IMG/VR virus record: IMGVR_UViG_3300031992_000067
Coordinates: 18,360-82,359 of that record
Strand: one strand, 5' to 3'
DNA length: 64,000 nucleotides
Source of the DNA: a virus
Taxonomy: Duplodnaviria > Caudoviricetes
Each line of letters starts with the position of its first letter. Within the stretch, counting starts at the first letter, position 1. The notes below the pieces were generated by a model. The model was not told the origin of the DNA. It did not search any database and saw only the letters and a program-made list of their open reading frames with translations. Position numbers and translations under genes: made by a program. This document shows, in pieces, positions 2,240 through 59,472 of the stretch.

Positions 2240-3013
2240 ATGCTGATTGACAAGATAAAGCTACTTTGGAACATGCTGGTGGGCAAGGCGAAGCTCACGA
2301 GCCGCAAGGACACCGCCGTGGTGTGCGTGGGCATGCAGACGTCGGCAAAGTACGGTGCATGCCCCGGCGCGCAGGTGGATTCGACGTCAATGGCTAGCAG
2401 GCTTGGAAAGTACGGGTCGGTTACGCTTCTGCAAAGCCGTAACGCCACTACGACAGCCGTGTCAGAAGCGCTTAGAGGCGCTTTGGAGAAGGACCTTTGC
2501 ATATTCTATTATTCCGGACACGGTGGCCAGCGTAGGGACCCGAAGGGGGAAAACGGCATGTCTGAGTTCCTGTGCCTGAACAACGGCCCGCTGCCCGACT
2601 ACGAGATTTGGAACATGGTATCAAAGGCCAAGGGTAGGGTCGTGATGATATTCGACTGCTGCCACTCGGCAACCATGTTCAGGGAGGCCACAGCAAGCAG
2701 CGACGTGGAACAGCCAGAGGTAGTAAACCTCGGATTTCGGTTCAAGATGCTGGAAGGAGTGGCGACGGCCAGAGACAACTCCGAAGTGGAGGCAGCAAAG
2801 AGCCACGGCATCCTGGTGTGGTCCGGGTGTCCGGCAAATAGCTACTCATACGGGGACGACAACGGAGGCGTGCTGACCAACGGCATCAAAAAAGGCATGA
2901 AGTCAGGCGCCACGTACGACAGCGTGTGGGAGACGGCCAAGAAGGCCGCCAAGAGCCAAAACCCCGTGAGGACCGTCATCGGGTCAGGATTTGACGGACT
3001 TGTCTTCAGATAG
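2240..3013 (+). CDS. Metacaspase / caspase-like peptidase (C14)
   Basis: His motif YYSGHGGQ, Cys motif IFDCCHSAT, late SYSYG...GGVLT; RBS GGAGG. Confidence 0.88.
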   Translation: MLIDKIKLLWNMLVGKAKLTSRKDTAVVCVGMQTSAKYGACPGAQVDSTSMASRLGKYGSVTLLQSRNATTTAVSEALRGALEKDLCIFYYSGHGGQRRDPKGENGMSEFLCLNNGPLPDYEIWNMVSKAKGRVVMIFDCCHSATMFREATASSDVEQPEVVNLGFRFKMLEGVATARDNSEVEAAKSHGILVWSGCPANSYSYGDDNGGVLTNGIKKGMKSGATYDSVWETAKKAAKSQNPVRTVIGSGFDGLVFR

Positions 3014-3760: not shown

Positions 3761-3798
3761 AAAATCCCCGCCGCCAAGGAGCCGGCCGGGATTTTTTT
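3761..3798 (+). terminator. Intrinsic terminator, possibly bidirectional
   Basis: AAAATCCC...GGGATTTT stem followed by a T run. Confidence 0.75.
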
Positions 3799-3812
3799 AC
3801 CTATTGGAAAAA

Positions 3813-3842
3813 TGGTTAAGATTTACCTTATACAGGTTATAA
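3813..3842 (+). promoter_or_regulatory. Putative phage promoter TGG(C)TTAA-N16-GTTATAA
   Basis: TGGTTAA at 3813-3819, 16-nt spacer, GTTATAA at 3836-3842; same geometry at 5019 and 6426. Confidence 0.6.
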
Positions 3843-3934
3843 AAAGATACCCAAGGAGCTTTCTCCATTGTACGGAGTACCCCGGTGTAAGAAAGGCGCC
3901 GGAAATTTAACCAAAGGTTCCAAGGGTCGTAATC

Positions 3935-4897
3935 ATGAACGAGAACATGAACACATACGCCCTCTCCAACCTCCCCTTCAACGGGGACCTTCTGACCTCG
4001 AAGGAGCGTGAGGTTATCGTCGAAAGCTGGGACGGGGAGGCCCAGCTCATCGACGACGTGGCGTCCATCCACGTCGCGGTCCATAGCGGGCAGGAGTTCC
4101 ACGCCGACGAGGCGTTGGCTCTGGCTCTCCTCCGCGTCCTCTCAGGCGCGGAGATCACGTGGACTAGGACCCGTGACCCCAAGGTCCTCTCCGAGGCCGA
4201 CCTCCGGGTCGACGTCGGGGAGGGTCTCCTCGACCACCACGGGGCCAGGGCCGAGGCCGGGGTAGCCGCCTGCACTCGTGTCTTCGCCCTCCTCCGCAAC
4301 TCTCGCACCCAGCCCCGCGAGGTGTGGGAGGTCCTGGAGCCGGTCGTGATCGCCACGGCCGCGATGGACACCGGTATGTCCACGGTCAATGTGAACCCCT
4401 GGGTTCACGCGGCGTGCCAGGCGGCCCGCGCCCGCGGCGAGAACCCCGACGAGGCGTTCGCGAAGGTCGTTGAAAAGATGACAGAGTTCGTCGTCGACCT
4501 CGTCGAGGCGGCCCGGGCGGCGGCCAAGGCGAAGGCCGCTGCGGAGCGCGAGATGGATGAGCTTGGTGACGCTCCAATCGTCATCTTCTCCTCCGCCTCG
4601 CGTCTGGCTGACGTGAAGAAGATGATGTGGGAGAAGAAGCGCGCCTGCATCTACTTCATCAGCCCCGAGTCCGAGTCGGATTGGCGCGTCCTCTGCGCCG
4701 CCGACCCGGATAAGCCCTACAGCCCGTTCGACTCCCGCCGTCTGATCCCGGAGAAGTTCCGGGGTCTCCGCGGCGTGAGCCTTGACGAGGCCGCTGGGAC
4801 GACTGGCGGCGTATTCTGCCATGCCGCCGGCTTCATCGCCGGGTTCTCCACGCGCTCGGCGGCCTTCCAGTTCGCCACGGCGTGTCTGGAGGACTAG
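3935..4897 (+). CDS. MYG1 family (UPF0160) metal-dependent hydrolase / putative RNA exonuclease
   Basis: HSGQEFHADE, RTRDP, DVGEG..DHH and C-terminal FCHAAGFIA are hallmark MYG1 motifs. Confidence 0.85.
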   Translation: MNENMNTYALSNLPFNGDLLTSKEREVIVESWDGEAQLIDDVASIHVAVHSGQEFHADEALALALLRVLSGAEITWTRTRDPKVLSEADLRVDVGEGLLDHHGARAEAGVAACTRVFALLRNSRTQPREVWEVLEPVVIATAAMDTGMSTVNVNPWVHAACQAARARGENPDEAFAKVVEKMTEFVVDLVEAARAAAKAKAAAEREMDELGDAPIVIFSSASRLADVKKMMWEKKRACIYFISPESESDWRVLCAADPDKPYSPFDSRRLIPEKFRGLRGVSLDEAAGTTGGVFCHAAGFIAGFSTRSAAFQFATACLED

Positions 4898-4967
4898 CCA
4901 CCGCACCCCATGCACGTGGGGGTTTCACAAACTTCAAGGCCCCGGCGCGTGCACGCCGGGAACAAAA

Positions 4968-4995
4968 GAGGCGGCTAGTAACCGCACTCTTTTTT
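4968..4995 (+). terminator. Intrinsic terminator after the MYG1-like gene
   Basis: GAG-GCGG-CTAGTAA-CCGC-A-CTC followed by TTTTTT. Confidence 0.7.
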
Positions 4996-5018
4996 ACCTT
5001 TTTGAGACATGGGTAAAA

Positions 5019-5049
5019 TGGCTTAAAAAACGCATAAAATACGTTATAA
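5019..5049 (+). promoter_or_regulatory. Putative promoter for the large ncRNA
   Basis: TGGCTTAA at 5019-5026, 16-nt spacer, GTTATAA at 5043-5049; first RNA stem starts at 5058. Confidence 0.6.
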
Positions 5050-5057
5050 GTATTTAC

Positions 5058-5990
5058 ACGGGGAAGATTACGCATCGGCATGGTTCGGTGACGAAACCGT
5101 TTCCCGTTGCTCTGGGGTCATCTGGAATGGGACGCACCCCGGATCCCGTGGAAGCGGGACACTTGAGAGCGGCAGGTCTGGCCGGCGAGCTCGTCGGTTA
5201 AGATAAAACTGCGTGGAGATGGATTACCACGCAGGACTTGTCGCACGCGCCCGGACGGCGCGTGACCTTCCCCCGGGTGGCGGTGAGGGGATGCCGGAAT
5301 CAAGTAACCGGTATGGAGTTCAGACACGGGCTCCGGCTTGTTGTGGTTTGGCAACGCAACAGGTTATAAGTCGTGAGGGCATGGCTTAGCGACTACGTGT
5401 CTAACCTCTAAGCAGCTCCTTAATCCGGGGAGCATAGGGGCTGATCAGGGATAGCCTTCTTCCAGAGGTGCCCAGGTGGAATGACGGTCCACCGGCTGCG
5501 GATCATAACGATGGTATAACTGCCGCAGCAAAAGACTGTTTCGGGCCAAGCCTGTTTCGAAGCAGTCCACGTCATTTCAGCTTCTCGGGCCATGTGGAAT
5601 TCTCGCATCCGCCCCATGGTCCATGTAAAGAGCGATCCCCCGCGCAAGTGGTTGGCAACATGCGCGGAAGGGTATGCGAGGTACGTCGGAACATCGGCAG
5701 CAATGCCATGTTTCTCGGGCGTAGGATAATTCCGGATGGGTGAGCGTCTCCCCTACCCGGGCATGCCAAAAACCCCTCGAAAGGTGAGGCTGGTTGAATG
5801 AGACGCCTGCACGGAATGTCCACGGTCCGTGCGAGTACACCGCGCCAACGGCGGTAGTGGAACGTTTTCCGGCTTAGGCCGGTAAAGCCCCAGGTCGCAA
5901 GGCCAGGGGCGAGGTGGAAGGCCAGGTGCTCCAGCGGACTTACAGGCGCACGTTGCGTCTGGGTTTCTGGAAGCTTGGTGGCCCACTAGG
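5058..5990 (+). ncRNA. Large highly structured non-coding RNA of unassigned class (boundaries approximate)
   Basis: No credible ORF over about 930 nt; about 20 consecutive hairpins; GNRA loops at 5088, 5150, 5700, 5779 and 5897; G-U pairs; two 7-bp pseudoknot-type pairings. Confidence 0.75.
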
Positions 5991-6018
5991 CTAGTAACCT
6001 TCATAGGAAAGGATTTTT

Positions 6019-6261
6019 ATGAAAACAACTGCGCCGTATCGCTCCTTCGGCAAGGGCAAGCCCGACAACCTCAACCGGCGTTTCGCCGACCGTACCCGTA
6101 CCGAACAGGTCGAGCGGGTCTCGGAGGGTGTGGTCGTCCACTGGGCGACCCCACGTCCGGACCGCCTGACCGAGAACAAGTCCGAGGAGGAACGCAAGTT
6201 CTTCCGGGACTTCGGTCCCAGGTACACCAAGAGGCACCCGGGGCCGCAGGCCCGCGGGTAG
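6019..6261 (+). CDS. Small basic hypothetical protein
   Basis: 80 aa, Arg/Lys-rich, RBS AAAGGA upstream. Confidence 0.65.
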   Translation: MKTTAPYRSFGKGKPDNLNRRFADRTRTEQVERVSEGVVVHWATPRPDRLTENKSEEERKFFRDFGPRYTKRHPGPQARG

Positions 6262-6380
6262 TCGGGTGGCAGTCGGGAAAGACCGACCCCAACGTACAGG
6301 CGTTGGGGGGTGAAAGCCCCCAGATGGAAAGAAGTGCATCGTCCGTGCGCCGCATCCAGCGGTGAATACGGACGATGCAC
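6261..6380 (+). ncRNA. Structured RNA element (hairpin cluster)
   Basis: Perfect 13-bp stem 6334-6346/6368-6380, CCCAACG/CGTTGGG stem, GAAA tetraloop hairpin. Confidence 0.45.
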
Positions 6381-6381
6381 G

Positions 6382-6411
6382 AAGGGAGCCGCGCCTGTGA
6401 GCGTTCCTTTT
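6382..6411 (+). terminator. Putative intrinsic terminator
   Basis: AAGGGA-GC...GC-G-TTCCTT followed by TTTACCT. Confidence 0.5.
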
Positions 6412-6425
6412 ACCTGTTATCCGTG

Positions 6426-6456
6426 TGGCTTAATAAAAGGCCTAACGGAGTTATAA
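6426..6456 (+). promoter_or_regulatory. Putative phage promoter TGGCTTAA-N16-GTTATAA
   Basis: TGGCTTAA at 6426-6433, 16-nt spacer, GTTATAA at 6450-6456. Confidence 0.6.
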
Positions 6457-6548
6457 CAATTTACCGGGGCCCGACTATTACGGACTCGGCCATGCGGGTG
6501 CATGGTCAGGACGCGTAATACGGCAGGTTCCACAACCAAGGAAACACA

Positions 6549-6764
6549 ATGAAGAAACGTTTCTTCGGCCGCGCCGTACAAGACGGCGTGGTAGTTTGCG
6601 AGGGGTTTGAGATCACCCCCCGCGAACATAAGGTCGCGATCTCCCCTAGGCTCGAGGCCCAGCGCCTCATGCGTGAGCAGGCACAGCGGAGGATGTCCGC
6701 CACCACGCGCAGCAATGTCGCGTGGAAACCCATCGTCGCCAAGGTGGAGGTGCAGAATGGATAG
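6549..6764 (+). CDS. Small basic hypothetical protein
   Basis: 71-aa ORF with AAGGA RBS. Confidence 0.6.
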   Translation: MKKRFFGRAVQDGVVVCEGFEITPREHKVAISPRLEAQRLMREQAQRRMSATTRSNVAWKPIVAKVEVQNG

Positions 6765-7179
6765 TAAGTTCTGCCCCTACTGCGGGTCGCCTCTTGCAGG
6801 CGACGGCCGCTACTGCGACGCATGCGGGAGCGAAATGCTCCCCGGCGACGCGCTGACGGCGGATCAGCTCCGTAACTGGGTGCGCCTGCCCCAGTCGGGG
6901 TTGCTCTGGGCCTTTGGGCTCGGGGCGGCCTCGGTCGGCATCGGCTACATAATCAGCATCCTGTCCATGACGTCAGTCGGCATTATGGGCGCGATGCTGG
7001 TAATATCAGCCGGCGCGACCCTCTCGGCGGGAGTGGCCTTCGCCGGCTACCTTGTCATCCGGCACCTCTTCGGACATCTTGCGGCTCGTCCGCTTGACCG
7101 AATGCTGGGTGCGTCTCTCAGCATGGCCGCGGCCTTTGGCTTCTGGCCGCTTCTCGGGCTGCTCATGGCTGCCCTGTAA
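6757..7179 (+). CDS. Zinc-ribbon membrane protein
   Basis: N-terminal CPYCG...CDACG followed by about 3 hydrophobic segments; ATG 6757 with GGAGG RBS. Confidence 0.7.
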   Translation: MDSKFCPYCGSPLAGDGRYCDACGSEMLPGDALTADQLRNWVRLPQSGLLWAFGLGAASVGIGYIISILSMTSVGIMGAMLVISAGATLSAGVAFAGYLVIRHLFGHLAARPLDRMLGASLSMAAAFGFWPLLGLLMAAL

Positions 7180-35514: not shown

Positions 35515-35865
35515 ATGGCAGGAAAAAAGGTACCGAAATCAATGACGCTGCAGGAAATGCGCGACGATGCCGAGATGCGACTCAAGCAGGGAATGGACCC
35601 CGATGCCGAAGTCGTAATTCTCGGTAATGGGCACACGGCCCGTATTATCGCTACAACGCCTATTCGCGGCAAGTTGCATCTGCATCGTTCAAACGAGCGT
35701 AATTGCGACAGGTTCGCCAAGGGTATGGATGCTGTAAGGGCATTCGCCGACGAAATTGGAGAAACGCTTAACGGACCTGAAGATGTGTTTGCAAACTTCA
35801 GGAATTTTGTGGACTGGCTTTACAAGAAGCCGTCAAAACGCAGAGCTAAGAAGGGAGCGAAGTGA
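35515..35865 (+). CDS. Hypothetical protein
   Basis: AAGGAG RBS. Confidence 0.6.
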   Translation: MAGKKVPKSMTLQEMRDDAEMRLKQGMDPDAEVVILGNGHTARIIATTPIRGKLHLHRSNERNCDRFAKGMDAVRAFADEIGETLNGPEDVFANFRNFVDWLYKKPSKRRAKKGAK

Positions 35866-36989
35866 TGGCAAGAAAACTGGCAAGTGTTGTTGAGATTGAA
35901 TCGGTAGAGCCGATTCCCGAGACGGAGCGGCTCTCCGTGGCTACCATGCATGGCAAGGGCTGGAAGGTCGTCGTGGGACGAAACGACTTCCGGCCTGGTG
36001 AAAAAGCGGTCTACTTCGAGATCGACTCGTACCTTCCGGACGAGGAGCGCTACGCATTCCTTCGCGAGCGCTGCATGCGGAAGTTCTGCACCAAGGGCGG
36101 AGAAGTCCTGAAGCAGGGTCTCCGCATCAAGACCATCAAGCTCCGGGGCGTAATCTCCCAGGGGCTCCTGATGCCGGCCACCAAAGAGCTGTTTCCGGAA
36201 TGCTACGACGAGCGCGGGTTCAGATGCGTCTTCGACGCTGACCTCACGGAAACCCTGAAGGTAGAGCACTTCGACGAGGTGAAGGCCGCGCTGGTCCCGG
36301 CGATGGGCAATCCGATATCGGCAGAATCCGCCGGTTCGTTCCCGTCGTACGTCCCCAAGACCGACGAGGAGCGAATCCAAAATCTGGTCGAATACTTCAC
36401 CACGATGAAGAACCGCACGTTCGAAGTCACGGTTAAGGCCGACGGTAGCAGCGTCACGATGCTGTACGCGCCGAACGAAGATCCGGAGGCGCCGTTCAAG
36501 GTCTGCTCGCGCAACCTCAACCTGAAGCCGGAGAAGGCGGACGGAACCAAGCCGCTGCCATGGCAGATGGCCTTCAAGTACGACGTGGAGAACAAGCTCC
36601 GCAAGTACTGGGAGGACCACGGGGTTGAGCTGGCCGTGCAGGGCGAGCTCATCGGCCCGGGCATCCAGAGCAACCGCGACATGCTCACCGAGCATGAGTG
36701 GCGGGTGTTCAAGATCTATGACATCACCAACCAGAGGTACCTTCTTCCTGGCATCGCGAAAAAGGTCTGCGACGACCTTGGGCTGAAATACGTCACCATC
36801 GTCGCCGAGTCGATGCCGGTCTTCCAGAAGTTCAGGAACGTCGACGAGCTACTGCTGTTCGCCGAGGGCAAGACCGACCGCGGCAACGAGCGCGAAGGGC
36901 TGGTGTTCAAGACCACGGACGAACCCTACCGCACGTTCAAGGCGGTCAGCAACCGCTACCTGCTCAAGCAGGCGGCAAAGGAGGACTAG
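35865..36989 (+). CDS. ATP-dependent RNA ligase (Rnl2 / DRB0094-type)
   Basis: N-terminal RKLASV..I, YFEIDS, SQGLL; motif I KADGSS, GELIGPGIQ, EGLVFK, FKAVSNRYLL. Confidence 0.88.
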   Translation: MARKLASVVEIESVEPIPETERLSVATMHGKGWKVVVGRNDFRPGEKAVYFEIDSYLPDEERYAFLRERCMRKFCTKGGEVLKQGLRIKTIKLRGVISQGLLMPATKELFPECYDERGFRCVFDADLTETLKVEHFDEVKAALVPAMGNPISAESAGSFPSYVPKTDEERIQNLVEYFTTMKNRTFEVTVKADGSSVTMLYAPNEDPEAPFKVCSRNLNLKPEKADGTKPLPWQMAFKYDVENKLRKYWEDHGVELAVQGELIGPGIQSNRDMLTEHEWRVFKIYDITNQRYLLPGIAKKVCDDLGLKYVTIVAESMPVFQKFRNVDELLLFAEGKTDRGNEREGLVFKTTDEPYRTFKAVSNRYLLKQAAKED

Positions 36990-43711: not shown

Positions 43712-44275
43712 ATGGGACAATACTACAAGGTCCTTGCGGAAGACAAGGACGGAAAACGCACGGCCTATGACCGGAGCGTGGACGGGAACTACACTATGGC
43801 CAAGCTCATGGAGCACTCGTGGTGGAACAACAGTTTCTGCCGTGCTCTTTCGGAAACGCTGGTCGACAACCCAAGGAGGATCGCCTGGGTCGGGGATTAC
43901 GCGGAGGAAGACGAGTGCAAGGCGCTCGGGTTTGAATACTGGGAGGTGTGGGGCAGCGAGGACCAGGACCCCGCAGTCGGCATCAGCTCGACCGACTTCA
44001 CGCTCGACCGGGTCAAGTATCTGGTCAACGTCACCAAGAAGCTGTACGTAGACCTGGCCAAATACAAGGAGTCAAGCATGGATGAGAACGGCCGGACCAT
44101 ACACCCCATTCCCGTGCTTACGTGCATCGGGAACGGACGCGGTGGCGGGGACTACCATCCTGCGGACGGCGTTTCCGGCGAATGGATCGGGGCATGGGCG
44201 TTCGACGCGATCATGCTCACGAACGACAAGCCAGAGGGCTGTGCCGAAGTCTGCCCGGTTTTCCGGGAAAACTAG
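43712..44275 (+). CDS. Hypothetical protein
   Basis: AAAGGAG RBS; MGQYYK...KLMEHSW...GNGRGGGDY. Confidence 0.7.
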   Translation: MGQYYKVLAEDKDGKRTAYDRSVDGNYTMAKLMEHSWWNNSFCRALSETLVDNPRRIAWVGDYAEEDECKALGFEYWEVWGSEDQDPAVGISSTDFTLDRVKYLVNVTKKLYVDLAKYKESSMDENGRTIHPIPVLTCIGNGRGGGDYHPADGVSGEWIGAWAFDAIMLTNDKPEGCAEVCPVFREN

Positions 44276-44393
44276 AACCAACAATAAGTGGTTTCGTGTT
44301 ACCCCTCTGCCACCGTCTCGGGGAATGCCGGCCAGTGAGATGGCGCCGTACATGCGGGGAGCGACCCGCACAACCATTTTCAGGAGGACAACT

Positions 44394-45251
44394 ATGAACA
44401 CCGACTACAAGGAACTGGCCATGTATCTGGCCAACAGAATGTATAAGTGGTTTGAAAAGGAAGCCGGGTACAAGAACAAGAAGGATTACAAGGCTGTCAT
44501 CGGCATCTCCGGAGGCAAGGATTCAGCAGTGGCGGCGGCCATAGCCTGCGAGGCGATCGGCAAGGAGAACGTGTACGGAGTGCTGATGCCGAACGGCGAG
44601 CAGGCCGACATCGAGGATTCAGAAAAGGTCTGCAGGTTCCTGGACATCAAATGGGGCGTGTGCAAGATTGACGGCCCATACGTAGCGATGCTCGCCGCGC
44701 TGAACGTCTCTGACGTCGACATCAGAGACAGGGAGAAGTGGTGGAACCCAGACAAGTTCGAATGCGACACGAGAGTCACGACGAACCTGCCGGCCAGACT
44801 CCGCATGTGCGCGCTGTACTCGATCGCCGCCAGAATCAACGGCCGCGTCATCGGCACCGGAAACTTCTCCGAGGCCATCGCCGGCTACACCACGCTGTGG
44901 GGCGACTCGGCCTGCGACTACAATCCGTTGGCCCGCATGTACGCCGACGAGGTCGTGGAGGTGGGGCGTGCGCTGGGCGACCTGCCGGAGGAGGTACTGT
45001 CAAAACCGCCGTCCGACGGAATGTCCGGGAAGACAGACGAGGACAACCTCGGCTTCACCTACGCGGAGCTCAAGGCCGCGATGCACAGGACTGGCGACGA
45101 GGTCCCGCCGAAGTACGACGAGGTGATGAAGCGGGCGACTGCCGCATCGTTCAAGCGCAGGCTTCTAATAGGGATACCGCATCCGAGCGTGGAGCGCCAC
45201 CTTGACGGCTCAATCGACATGATACGCACGATGGACGCCTGGAACAAGTAA
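44394..45251 (+). CDS. nadE: NH3-dependent NAD+ synthetase
   Basis: GISGGKDSAV, N..ARLRM..LY, VIGTGN.SE..GYTT.WGD, KPPSDG...TDED.LGFTY. Confidence 0.9.
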   Translation: MNTDYKELAMYLANRMYKWFEKEAGYKNKKDYKAVIGISGGKDSAVAAAIACEAIGKENVYGVLMPNGEQADIEDSEKVCRFLDIKWGVCKIDGPYVAMLAALNVSDVDIRDREKWWNPDKFECDTRVTTNLPARLRMCALYSIAARINGRVIGTGNFSEAIAGYTTLWGDSACDYNPLARMYADEVVEVGRALGDLPEEVLSKPPSDGMSGKTDEDNLGFTYAELKAAMHRTGDEVPPKYDEVMKRATAASFKRRLLIGIPHPSVERHLDGSIDMIRTMDAWNK

Positions 45252-59315: not shown

Positions 59316-59391
59316 GGGCCCTTGGCGCAATGGTTAGCGCGTGGCACTCATAATGCCTTGGTTGCAGGTTCGAGTCCTGCAGGGCCCACCA
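59316..59391 (+). tRNA. tRNA-Ile2 (anticodon CAT, lysidine type; Met not fully excluded)
   Basis: 76 nt; GGGCCCT/AGGGCCC acceptor stem, A73, CCA; loop CT-CAT-AA; T-loop TTCGAGT; resembles bacterial Ile2 tRNAs. Confidence 0.85.
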
Positions 59392-59395
59392 TTTC

Positions 59396-59472
59396 GGACC
59401 GGTAGCTCAATAGGACAGAGCGTAGGATTCCTAATCCTAAGGTTGCGGGTTCGATCCCCGCCCGGTCCGCCA
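59396..59472 (+). tRNA. tRNA-Arg (anticodon CCT)
   Basis: 77 nt; GGACCGG/CCGGTCC acceptor stem, G73, CCA; TAGGA-TTCCTAA-TCCTA anticodon arm. Confidence 0.92.

Follow-up and report, generated by a model that had tools for sequence, protein, structure and literature searches.

What is encoded between positions 4964 and 6411 of a phage genome where a long interval without an open reading frame (ORF) separates a nuclease gene from the gene of a very small basic protein, and does the nuclease belong with the other two? The question is raised by a 64,000-nucleotide (nt) stretch of DNA, here called the window, which covers bases 18360-82359 of an 82-kb IMG/VR phage record (IMGVR_UViG_3300031992_000067, estimated 55% complete). 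The locus sits in the variable early region of this uncultivated large phage. A sequence-only reading had joined the nuclease, which belongs to the MYG1/UPF0160 family, the RNA from the ORF-free interval and the basic protein in a single ribonucleoprotein (RNP) module. Our analysis suggests a different grouping. With about even confidence, we consider the segment 4964-6411 best explained as a self-contained, shuffled early unit that encodes a novel modular RNA (RNA-A) and the small basic protein, which possibly form an RNP. Judged from three lineages, the unit would be a new and rare structured-RNA-plus-small-protein cassette, to which MYG1 is not linked. Its parts are as follows.

4964-4995, + strand: terminator hairpin and T-run at the end of the MYG1 cassette
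4993-5049, + strand: promoter P2 (TTTACCT; -35 GCTTAA at 5021-5026; -10 TTATAA at 5044-5049)
5060-5273, + strand: RNA domain D1, predicted to be multi-branched and closed by GGGGAAG/CUUCCCC
5276-5576, + strand: RNA domain D2, predicted to be multi-branched with ~9 hairpins
5577-5800, + strand: RNA domain D3, a variable module
5807-5868, + strand: RNA domain D4
5869-6004, + strand: RNA domain D5, predicted hairpins up to the ribosome-binding site (RBS)
6005-6013, + strand: Shine-Dalgarno sequence AGGAAAGGA
6019-6261, + strand: gene of the 80-residue basic protein, an orphan family with four known members
6262-6380, + strand: structured 3' untranslated region (UTR), with the invariant GGGUGAAAGYCCC at 6308-6320 between two predicted hairpins (6272-6287, about 6288-6307) and a long one (6334-6380)
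6382-6411, + strand: terminator-like hairpin and UUUU, the first after the ORF, overlapping the TTTACCT of the next cassette

Three lineages carry the RNA, the ORF and the 3' element: the window, the 1.7-kb contig L003, and the contigs L006 and L007, each ~0.6 kb long. In the window, the 1.1 kb between the MYG1 gene and the small gene (4898-6018) contain 7-19 stop codons in each of the six frames, and all three stop codons occur in five of the six. Opening of the interval by stop-codon recoding was considered and rejected, since several kinds of stop close every frame; the mixed stops make it non-coding under any stop-codon reassignment. The predicted fold energy is -424 kcal/mol for the + strand (z -4.2) and -354 kcal/mol for the - strand (z -2.0), and this gap of 70 kcal/mol fits a + strand RNA rich in G-U pairs. 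D1 and D2 are predicted to be two closed domains with ~25 helices. Between the window and L003, 47 of their 536 sites differ (0.09), compared with a synonymous divergence (dS) of 0.18 in the ORF. The real L003 substitutions leave the fold energy of D1-D2 unchanged (-235.5 vs -234.3), while the same substitutions placed randomly give a mean of -220.7 (sd 6.8), a cost of ~14 kcal/mol (P 0.02). D4 contains 26 nt that are identical between the window and L006, at a distance where dS is ~1.3 (saturated) and the proteins are 41-48% identical, which argues for strong constraint on this domain. Its hairpin loop UCCAC could pair with a complementary GUGGA downstream to form a pseudoknot in the predicted structure. 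In D5, the predicted hairpin CAGGCGCA/UGCGUCUG covaries with L006. The rarity of the stretch and its lack of known family matches could be taken as signs of a decaying gene or a spacer without function. However, the stretch has diverged less than synonymous sites, and its folding is strand-specific and has kept its energy; no translated fragment resembles a protein, and stops lie across all frames. We find an explanation by decay hardly credible.

RNA-A is, by prediction, a highly folded RNA of ~950 nt, new and without a known family. Searches of 4850-6550 with the 4227 families of Rfam 15, at the gathering score and at E values up to 10, returned only chance hairpins of small RNAs, the best with E 0.35 and 25 bits against a gathering score of 70. 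The families without a match include GOLLD, ROOL, OLE, HEARO, raiA, group I/II introns, RNase P, tmRNA and 6S. ARAGORN found nothing in the same interval. RNA-A was not found in GenBank phages by blastn or tblastn. Three RNA motifs, run as exact patterns against viral, metagenome and genome contigs, gave zero or chance matches, and L008 and L013-L021 showed no further similarity. To our knowledge, bacteria and phages have so far yielded only a handful of RNAs above 500 nt that fold in complex ways, and every one of them has opened new RNA structural biology. The nearest comparison is with GOLLD and ROOL, large ornate RNAs that often occur in phages and prophages (PMC5737381; bioRxiv 10.1101/2024.12.08.627333). 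RNA-A resembles them in its length (several hundred to ~1000 nt), its predicted multi-domain and heavily paired structure, its lack of an ORF and its phage origin. It differs in that it matches neither family, that the two tRNAs of the phage (tRNA-Met and tRNA-Arg(CCU), window 59316-59472) are 53 kb off and not adjacent, that it is predicted to share its transcript with a protein gene, and that its three lineages yield no statistically solid consensus structure. The unit has a predicted promoter and predicted ends, encodes a candidate partner protein and occurs naturally in domain-swapped forms, and RNA-A should therefore be directly testable in vitro.

The ORF downstream of RNA-A (6019-6261) is the sole frame open in all three lineages, and its indels (15, 6 and 3 nt) are in frame. 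GC content is 0.80-0.86 at third codon positions (GC3) and 0.51 at second positions (GC2). The C-terminal half of the protein is conserved, with an invariant core of GV.VHWA, ERK and RHPG. By these sequence criteria, the ORF is a real gene. The Shine-Dalgarno sequence ends 5 nt before the ATG. Translation looks possible, since this sequence and the AUG are predicted to lie only in a weak local A-U/G-U hairpin. The protein has 19 Lys and Arg residues versus 11 Asp and Glu residues, an isoelectric point of 10.6, a grand average of hydropathy of -1.5 and no membrane helix. Structure prediction gave a predicted local distance difference test (pLDDT) score of 56 with AF2 and 0.40 with ESM, too poor for a fold search, and the protein is probably mostly disordered on its own. 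In searches of 5.8 billion proteins and 1.84 billion cluster representatives, its only relatives were P0001 (98% identical), P0002 (76-83%; encoded on L003) and P0004 (41-48%; encoded on L006 and L007). P0003, a 591-residue repeat protein with an E value of 4e-4 to the small protein, was rejected as a homologue, the match being to a short WSTxRPD word. Scans of IMG/VR with the small protein, both flanking proteins and the MYG1 alignment found L002 alone, a MYG1 locus that is considered below.

The 3' UTR (6262-6380) contains four predicted hairpins and the motif GGGUGAAAGCCCC. A covariance model from the window and L003 recovers the L006 element at full length (31.7 bits, E 7e-6). In the alignment, which had been fitted to the structure of the model, 98% of the cells are paired, and compensatory changes occur in 19 of the 56 pairs, a count that none of the 500 shuffles attained; slid controls give 0-3. 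A 12-mer of the element, GGTGAAAGYCCC (window 6309-6320), is also present in the 3' UTR of an unrelated 67-residue ORF that adjoins MYG1 in L002 (L002:4619-4630), where about 0.03 matches would be expected by chance over the loci examined. Despite the shared GGTGAAAGYCCC, the L002 UTR is not picked up by the covariance model of the whole element.

The arrangement of promoters and terminators points to expression of these parts on one RNA. P2 is sigma-70-like, and transcription from it would start near 5056. In the interval between the RNA and the ORF, no promoter of its class (P1-P3, see below) was found, and no hairpin with a T-run was seen at 5950-6018. The ORF thus appears reachable only from the promoter at 5021-5049, so we predict a transcript from ~5056 to ~6411, roughly 1.36 kb. 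A candidate internal promoter at 5358-5371 (GGTTATAAGT) was discarded; its -35 spacing is 22 instead of 17. Much of the sequence-only reading is borne out here. It had proposed a single transcript with no clear terminator between the non-coding RNA and the ORF, a basic ORF with a good RBS and a hairpin cluster behind it, and the cluster is both real and conserved. It had also pictured the ORF as looping out of a closed RNA. This picture is unsupported because the predicted pairing of the leader with the 3' UTR is not conserved; the pairings differ completely between the window and L003.

The RNA, the ORF and the 3' element also appear to travel together. L003 aligns with window 4964-5576 at 91%. 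The aligned segment contains P2, which is identical, and the conserved D1 and D2, both of which emerge from the consensus fold; the closing helix of D2 ends exactly where the homology stops. The next 439 nt of the window (5577-6015), within which D3 lies, are replaced in L003 by 262 unrelated nt, and D4 is absent. After the replaced segment, the alignment resumes at 84% and covers the ORF, the 3' element and the promoter and leader of the next cassette. In L006 and L007, the 186 nt upstream of the P0004 gene hold a 63-nt block that is 92% identical to window 5807-5868, the D4 domain. It is followed in order by the RBS region, the ORF, the 3' element, the terminator and a promoter. All three ORF-carrying lineages therefore have homologous RNA upstream and the 3' element downstream, suggesting that the three parts are inherited as one unit. 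RNA-A seems to be modular, since L003 swaps its middle and L006 keeps the D4 block that L003 lacks. Such an RNA, which recombines internally in a region where cassettes are shuffled at their joints, could share a promoter with the ORF in a mosaic cassette as a functionally unrelated passenger. We consider this decidedly improbable, given that homologous RNA precedes the ORF in three of three lineages, even at ~55% protein divergence.

Taken as an early unit of RNA and protein, the locus could work in the following way. P2 would fire near 5056, and the transcript would open with the ~950-nt modular folded non-coding RNA (D1-D5). It would run on, no terminator being seen, into the Shine-Dalgarno sequence and the gene of the basic, probably disordered protein, and would finish in the conserved hairpin cluster and an intrinsic terminator. 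RNA-A would be a product with a function of its own, given that its length is ~4 times that of the ORF and that D4 has changed less than the protein. The basic protein from the same transcript would bind the RNA in cis to form an early RNP, and the 3' hairpins would keep 3'-5' exonucleases from degrading the transcript.

Several points weigh against this proposal. The binding of the protein to the RNA is purely our inference. The protein has no significant family match in Pfam, PHROGs or a PDB profile search, no RNA-binding domain was recognised in it, and its ratio of nonsynonymous to synonymous divergence (dN/dS ~0.5) indicates only weak purifying selection. We infer the start and the end of the transcript and the read-through into the ORF from sequence. 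When the L003 substitutions are placed on the minimum free energy structure of the window alone, 15 pairs are kept and 10 are broken (P 0.28), and helix-level support for D1-D2 from two sequences is modest. The counts for the 3' element come from the fitted alignment described above. Co-inheritance is seen in three lineages, two of which are on contigs shorter than 2 kb and which are partly close relatives.

The main alternative is that the ~950 nt are a long cis-acting leader, which stabilises the early mRNA against host RNases or gates the translation of the 80-residue protein. In other early cassettes of this phage clade, too, folded non-coding RNA separates the promoter from the gene. L009 has a different ORF-free stretch of ~1.1 kb, which leads from a promoter to the RBS of a 185-residue gene, and a leader of ~140 nt ahead of a 35-residue ORF. 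The middle of the window leader is replaceable, as seen in L003. However, a leader that exceeds its ORF about fourfold, with ~25 helices and two closed domains, goes far beyond the needs of stabilisation, and conservation is stronger in D4 than in the protein that D4 would serve. In addition, no long-range sequestration of the Shine-Dalgarno sequence and the AUG is predicted. We regard a leader function as possible, although somewhat unlikely.

The proposed combination of RNA and protein has partial counterparts among known systems. Staphylococcus aureus RNAIII/hld and Escherichia coli SgrS/SgrT are structured RNAs that also encode a small protein. The predicted unit likewise places a large folded RNA and a small translated ORF on one transcript; it differs in being at least twice the size, in having the ORF at its 3' side, in being phage-encoded and in being known from sequence alone. 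Type I toxin mRNAs such as hok are also long, highly folded mRNAs for a very small protein, and the activity of hok-type mRNAs depends on the structure and processing of the 3' end. The window protein differs from their products in being hydrophilic and basic; no antisense promoter was seen, and the leader is several times longer. In type III toxin-antitoxin loci, tandem RNA repeats precede the gene of an endoRNase toxin of about 170 residues. No such repeats were found upstream of the ORF, which encodes 80 residues and has no family.

Whether MYG1 is a further component of the unit can be judged from the gene itself and from the company it keeps. The features on either side of the unit are as follows.

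3796-3842, + strand: promoter P1 of the MYG1 cassette (TTTACCT; -35 GGTTAA at 3814-3819; -10 TTATAA at 3837-3842)
3935-4897, + strand: MYG1/UPF0160 gene (320 residues), in a separate cassette with the same promoter class and apparently not part of the RNA unit
6409-6456, + strand: promoter P3, which belongs to the following cassette and is conserved in both L003 and L006 (-35 at 6428-6433; -10 at 6451-6456)

The product of the gene at 3935-4897 matches Pfam PF03690 in two stretches with an E value of 1e-31 and 111 bits (cut-off 22.1). It aligns to solved 'MYG1 exonuclease' chains (structures such as 24ah) with an E value of 5e-21, and the alignment covers the HxDEAL, RTRDP, DVG and HA[AS]GFI stretches. 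The DHH-type metal-site motifs FHADEAL, RVDVGEGLLDHHG and CHAAGFI are present in the translation and aligned to the solved chain. The phage protein is thus a full-length member of the family with conserved metal-site motifs, and it is predicted to share the 3'-5' RNA exonuclease activity of MYG1 (PMC6582341). It differs from that enzyme in being phage-encoded, and it shows no linkage to the RNA unit. The MYG1 protein search returned ~50 phage-type homologues (P0005-P0053) with 38-84% identity. An identical protein is encoded on a 190-kb contig, and close relatives are found on contigs of up to 203 kb. MYG1 was not found in GenBank phages (blastn, tblastn) or in PHROGs. Phage-encoded MYG1 nucleases form a sizeable undescribed clade. 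In the window, the gene is a GC-rich island, with a GC content of 0.67 and GC3 of 0.88 versus 0.55-0.58 and ~0.73 in the core genes.

The sequence-only reading had MYG1 trim or turn over the RNA as a member of the same RNP module. The observation behind it is correct: the MYG1 gene adjoins the RNA unit, and P1 and P2 share a motif that has only three copies in 82 kb. The 3'-5' exonuclease activity of MYG1 would fit such a role (PMC6582341), the terminal hairpin cluster would stall such an exonuclease, and MYG1 relatives often have another large RNA (RNA-B, described below) 0.6-3.4 kb downstream. The comparison of gene order argues otherwise. At eight MYG1 loci with 70-84% identity (L002, L009, L010, L011, L012, L022, L023 and L024), no similarity to window 4900-6560 was found within the DNA compared, which extends past the downstream end of MYG1 by 1.1-6 kb. 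For L002, the complete 36-kb record has no trace of RNA-A or the ORF either, and blastn and nhmmer detected no homology between RNA-A and the non-coding stretch of L002. L003 in turn carries the cassette with no MYG1 adjacent to it; the 224 nt to its left are AT-rich repeat DNA and not the 3' end of MYG1. The ~50 phage-type MYG1 proteins compare with only four members of the small-protein family. Hairpin-rich tails seem to be generic to these cassettes, because the MYG1 cassette has one too: two GC-rich hairpins lie ahead of the terminator in its 3' UTR (window 4898-4963). Since the eight MYG1 loci lack the RNA and the ORF within the DNA compared and the L003 cassette lacks an adjacent MYG1, MYG1 is, as judged from gene order, an unlinked and independent neighbour cassette. 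As far as MYG1 is concerned, this is the kind of evidence that the sequence-only reading had itself accepted as a refutation. The shared promoter class suggests that it is probably co-timed with the RNA unit and not a component of it. Of the proposed three-part module, the co-inheritance of RNA, ORF and 3' element stands, and the membership of MYG1 does not; we consider a module that includes MYG1 very unlikely. The repeat DNA at L003:1-224 contains repeated GTCAATAAC, GTTAATAAC and TTGACA-like words and could be an origin-like or regulatory repeat region.

A looser association of MYG1 with large RNAs is suggested by RNA-B, an unrelated, promoter-driven and by prediction strongly folded ORF-free stretch of 0.75-1.1 kb that lies 0.6-3.4 kb downstream of MYG1 in most relatives. 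RNA-B is also present in L023 and L024, in addition to the following copies.

L002:4735-5480: RNA-B, predicted to fold with z -8.0
L009:9895-11040: RNA-B
L012:9480-10295: RNA-B

A 270-nt core of RNA-B is 84-96% identical among these five loci and shows some compensatory changes. RNA-B has no Rfam match and is absent from the genome of the window; G000 lacks it. Phage MYG1 and large early RNAs may therefore be associated in general, and nothing in the sequences compared ties MYG1 specifically to RNA-A. A wider scenario, which we offer as speculation and think unlikely, is that this phage clade keeps an immediate-early slot beside MYG1 for interchangeable ornate RNAs of ~1 kb, either RNA-A or the unrelated RNA-B. 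RNA-A and its own 3'-encoded basic protein would form an early RNP for host takeover or counter-defence, and MYG1 would mature or recycle such RNAs generally. Directly after RNA-B in L002 lies a DUF2828/DUF7788 gene (L002:5540-7486), which we take to be TROVE/vWA-like. Ahead of it stand four spaced copies of CAGCAAYCCAAC, with hairpins.

The borders of the unit indicate how it may have moved. The pattern TTTACCT...G[CG]TTAA-N17-TTATAA has only three copies in the whole 82-kb record, at 3814, 5021 and 6428 (control 0). Because all three are found here, MYG1, the RNA unit and the next gene form three consecutive cassettes of one promoter class. At each border, a terminator hairpin is followed by a T-run that merges into TTTACCT and then by G[CG]TTAA-N17-TTATAA. 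There are three successive joints of this kind, at about 3761-3842, 4964-5049 and 6382-6456; in the first, P1 directly follows a terminator hairpin and T-run (about 3761-3798). The same layout is repeated in L002, L009 and L022. A TTTAC-like word recurs just downstream of the -10 element. The promoter class could represent a candidate regulator site or an immediate-early class. The homology to L003 begins with the first base of the terminator, at 4964, and MYG1 homology with five relatives stops at 4897-4908. In these alignments, the homology breaks coincide exactly with the terminator-promoter joints. The breakpoints suggest that the unit travels between phage genomes by recombination, as a cassette bounded by composite joints.

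A similar organisation has been described as PeSL in T4-type phages, in which promoter-terminator cassettes occupy hyperplastic regions (PMC2839356, PMC4122927). In both cases, every cassette border combines a stem-loop terminator with an early promoter fused to it, and the breakpoints of gain, loss and replacement lie at the joints within a hyperplastic early region. The window motif differs from PeSL by eye, and the phage is unrelated to T4. By analogy, the window cassettes may work like PeSL, a likeness of layout and not of membership. These early regions would then be built from swappable terminator-promoter cassettes, a PeSL-like architecture beyond the T4 group. The phage is far from cultured ones, the best matches of its DNA polymerase having ~24% identity.

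The third cassette (window 6549-7179) contains two overlapping ORFs in different frames. The first would encode 71 residues from a conserved ATG with an RBS. The second, of 190 residues from a TTG, matches a zinc ribbon and has a tail that is hydrophobic. To the left of MYG1 lies a conserved late-type gene block, and variable accessory genes come after it. Further predicted products of the phage are a stand-alone caspase-like protease (window 2240-3013), an RNA ligase with an OB fold plus RNA_ligase (window 35862-36989) and NadE (window 44082-45251).

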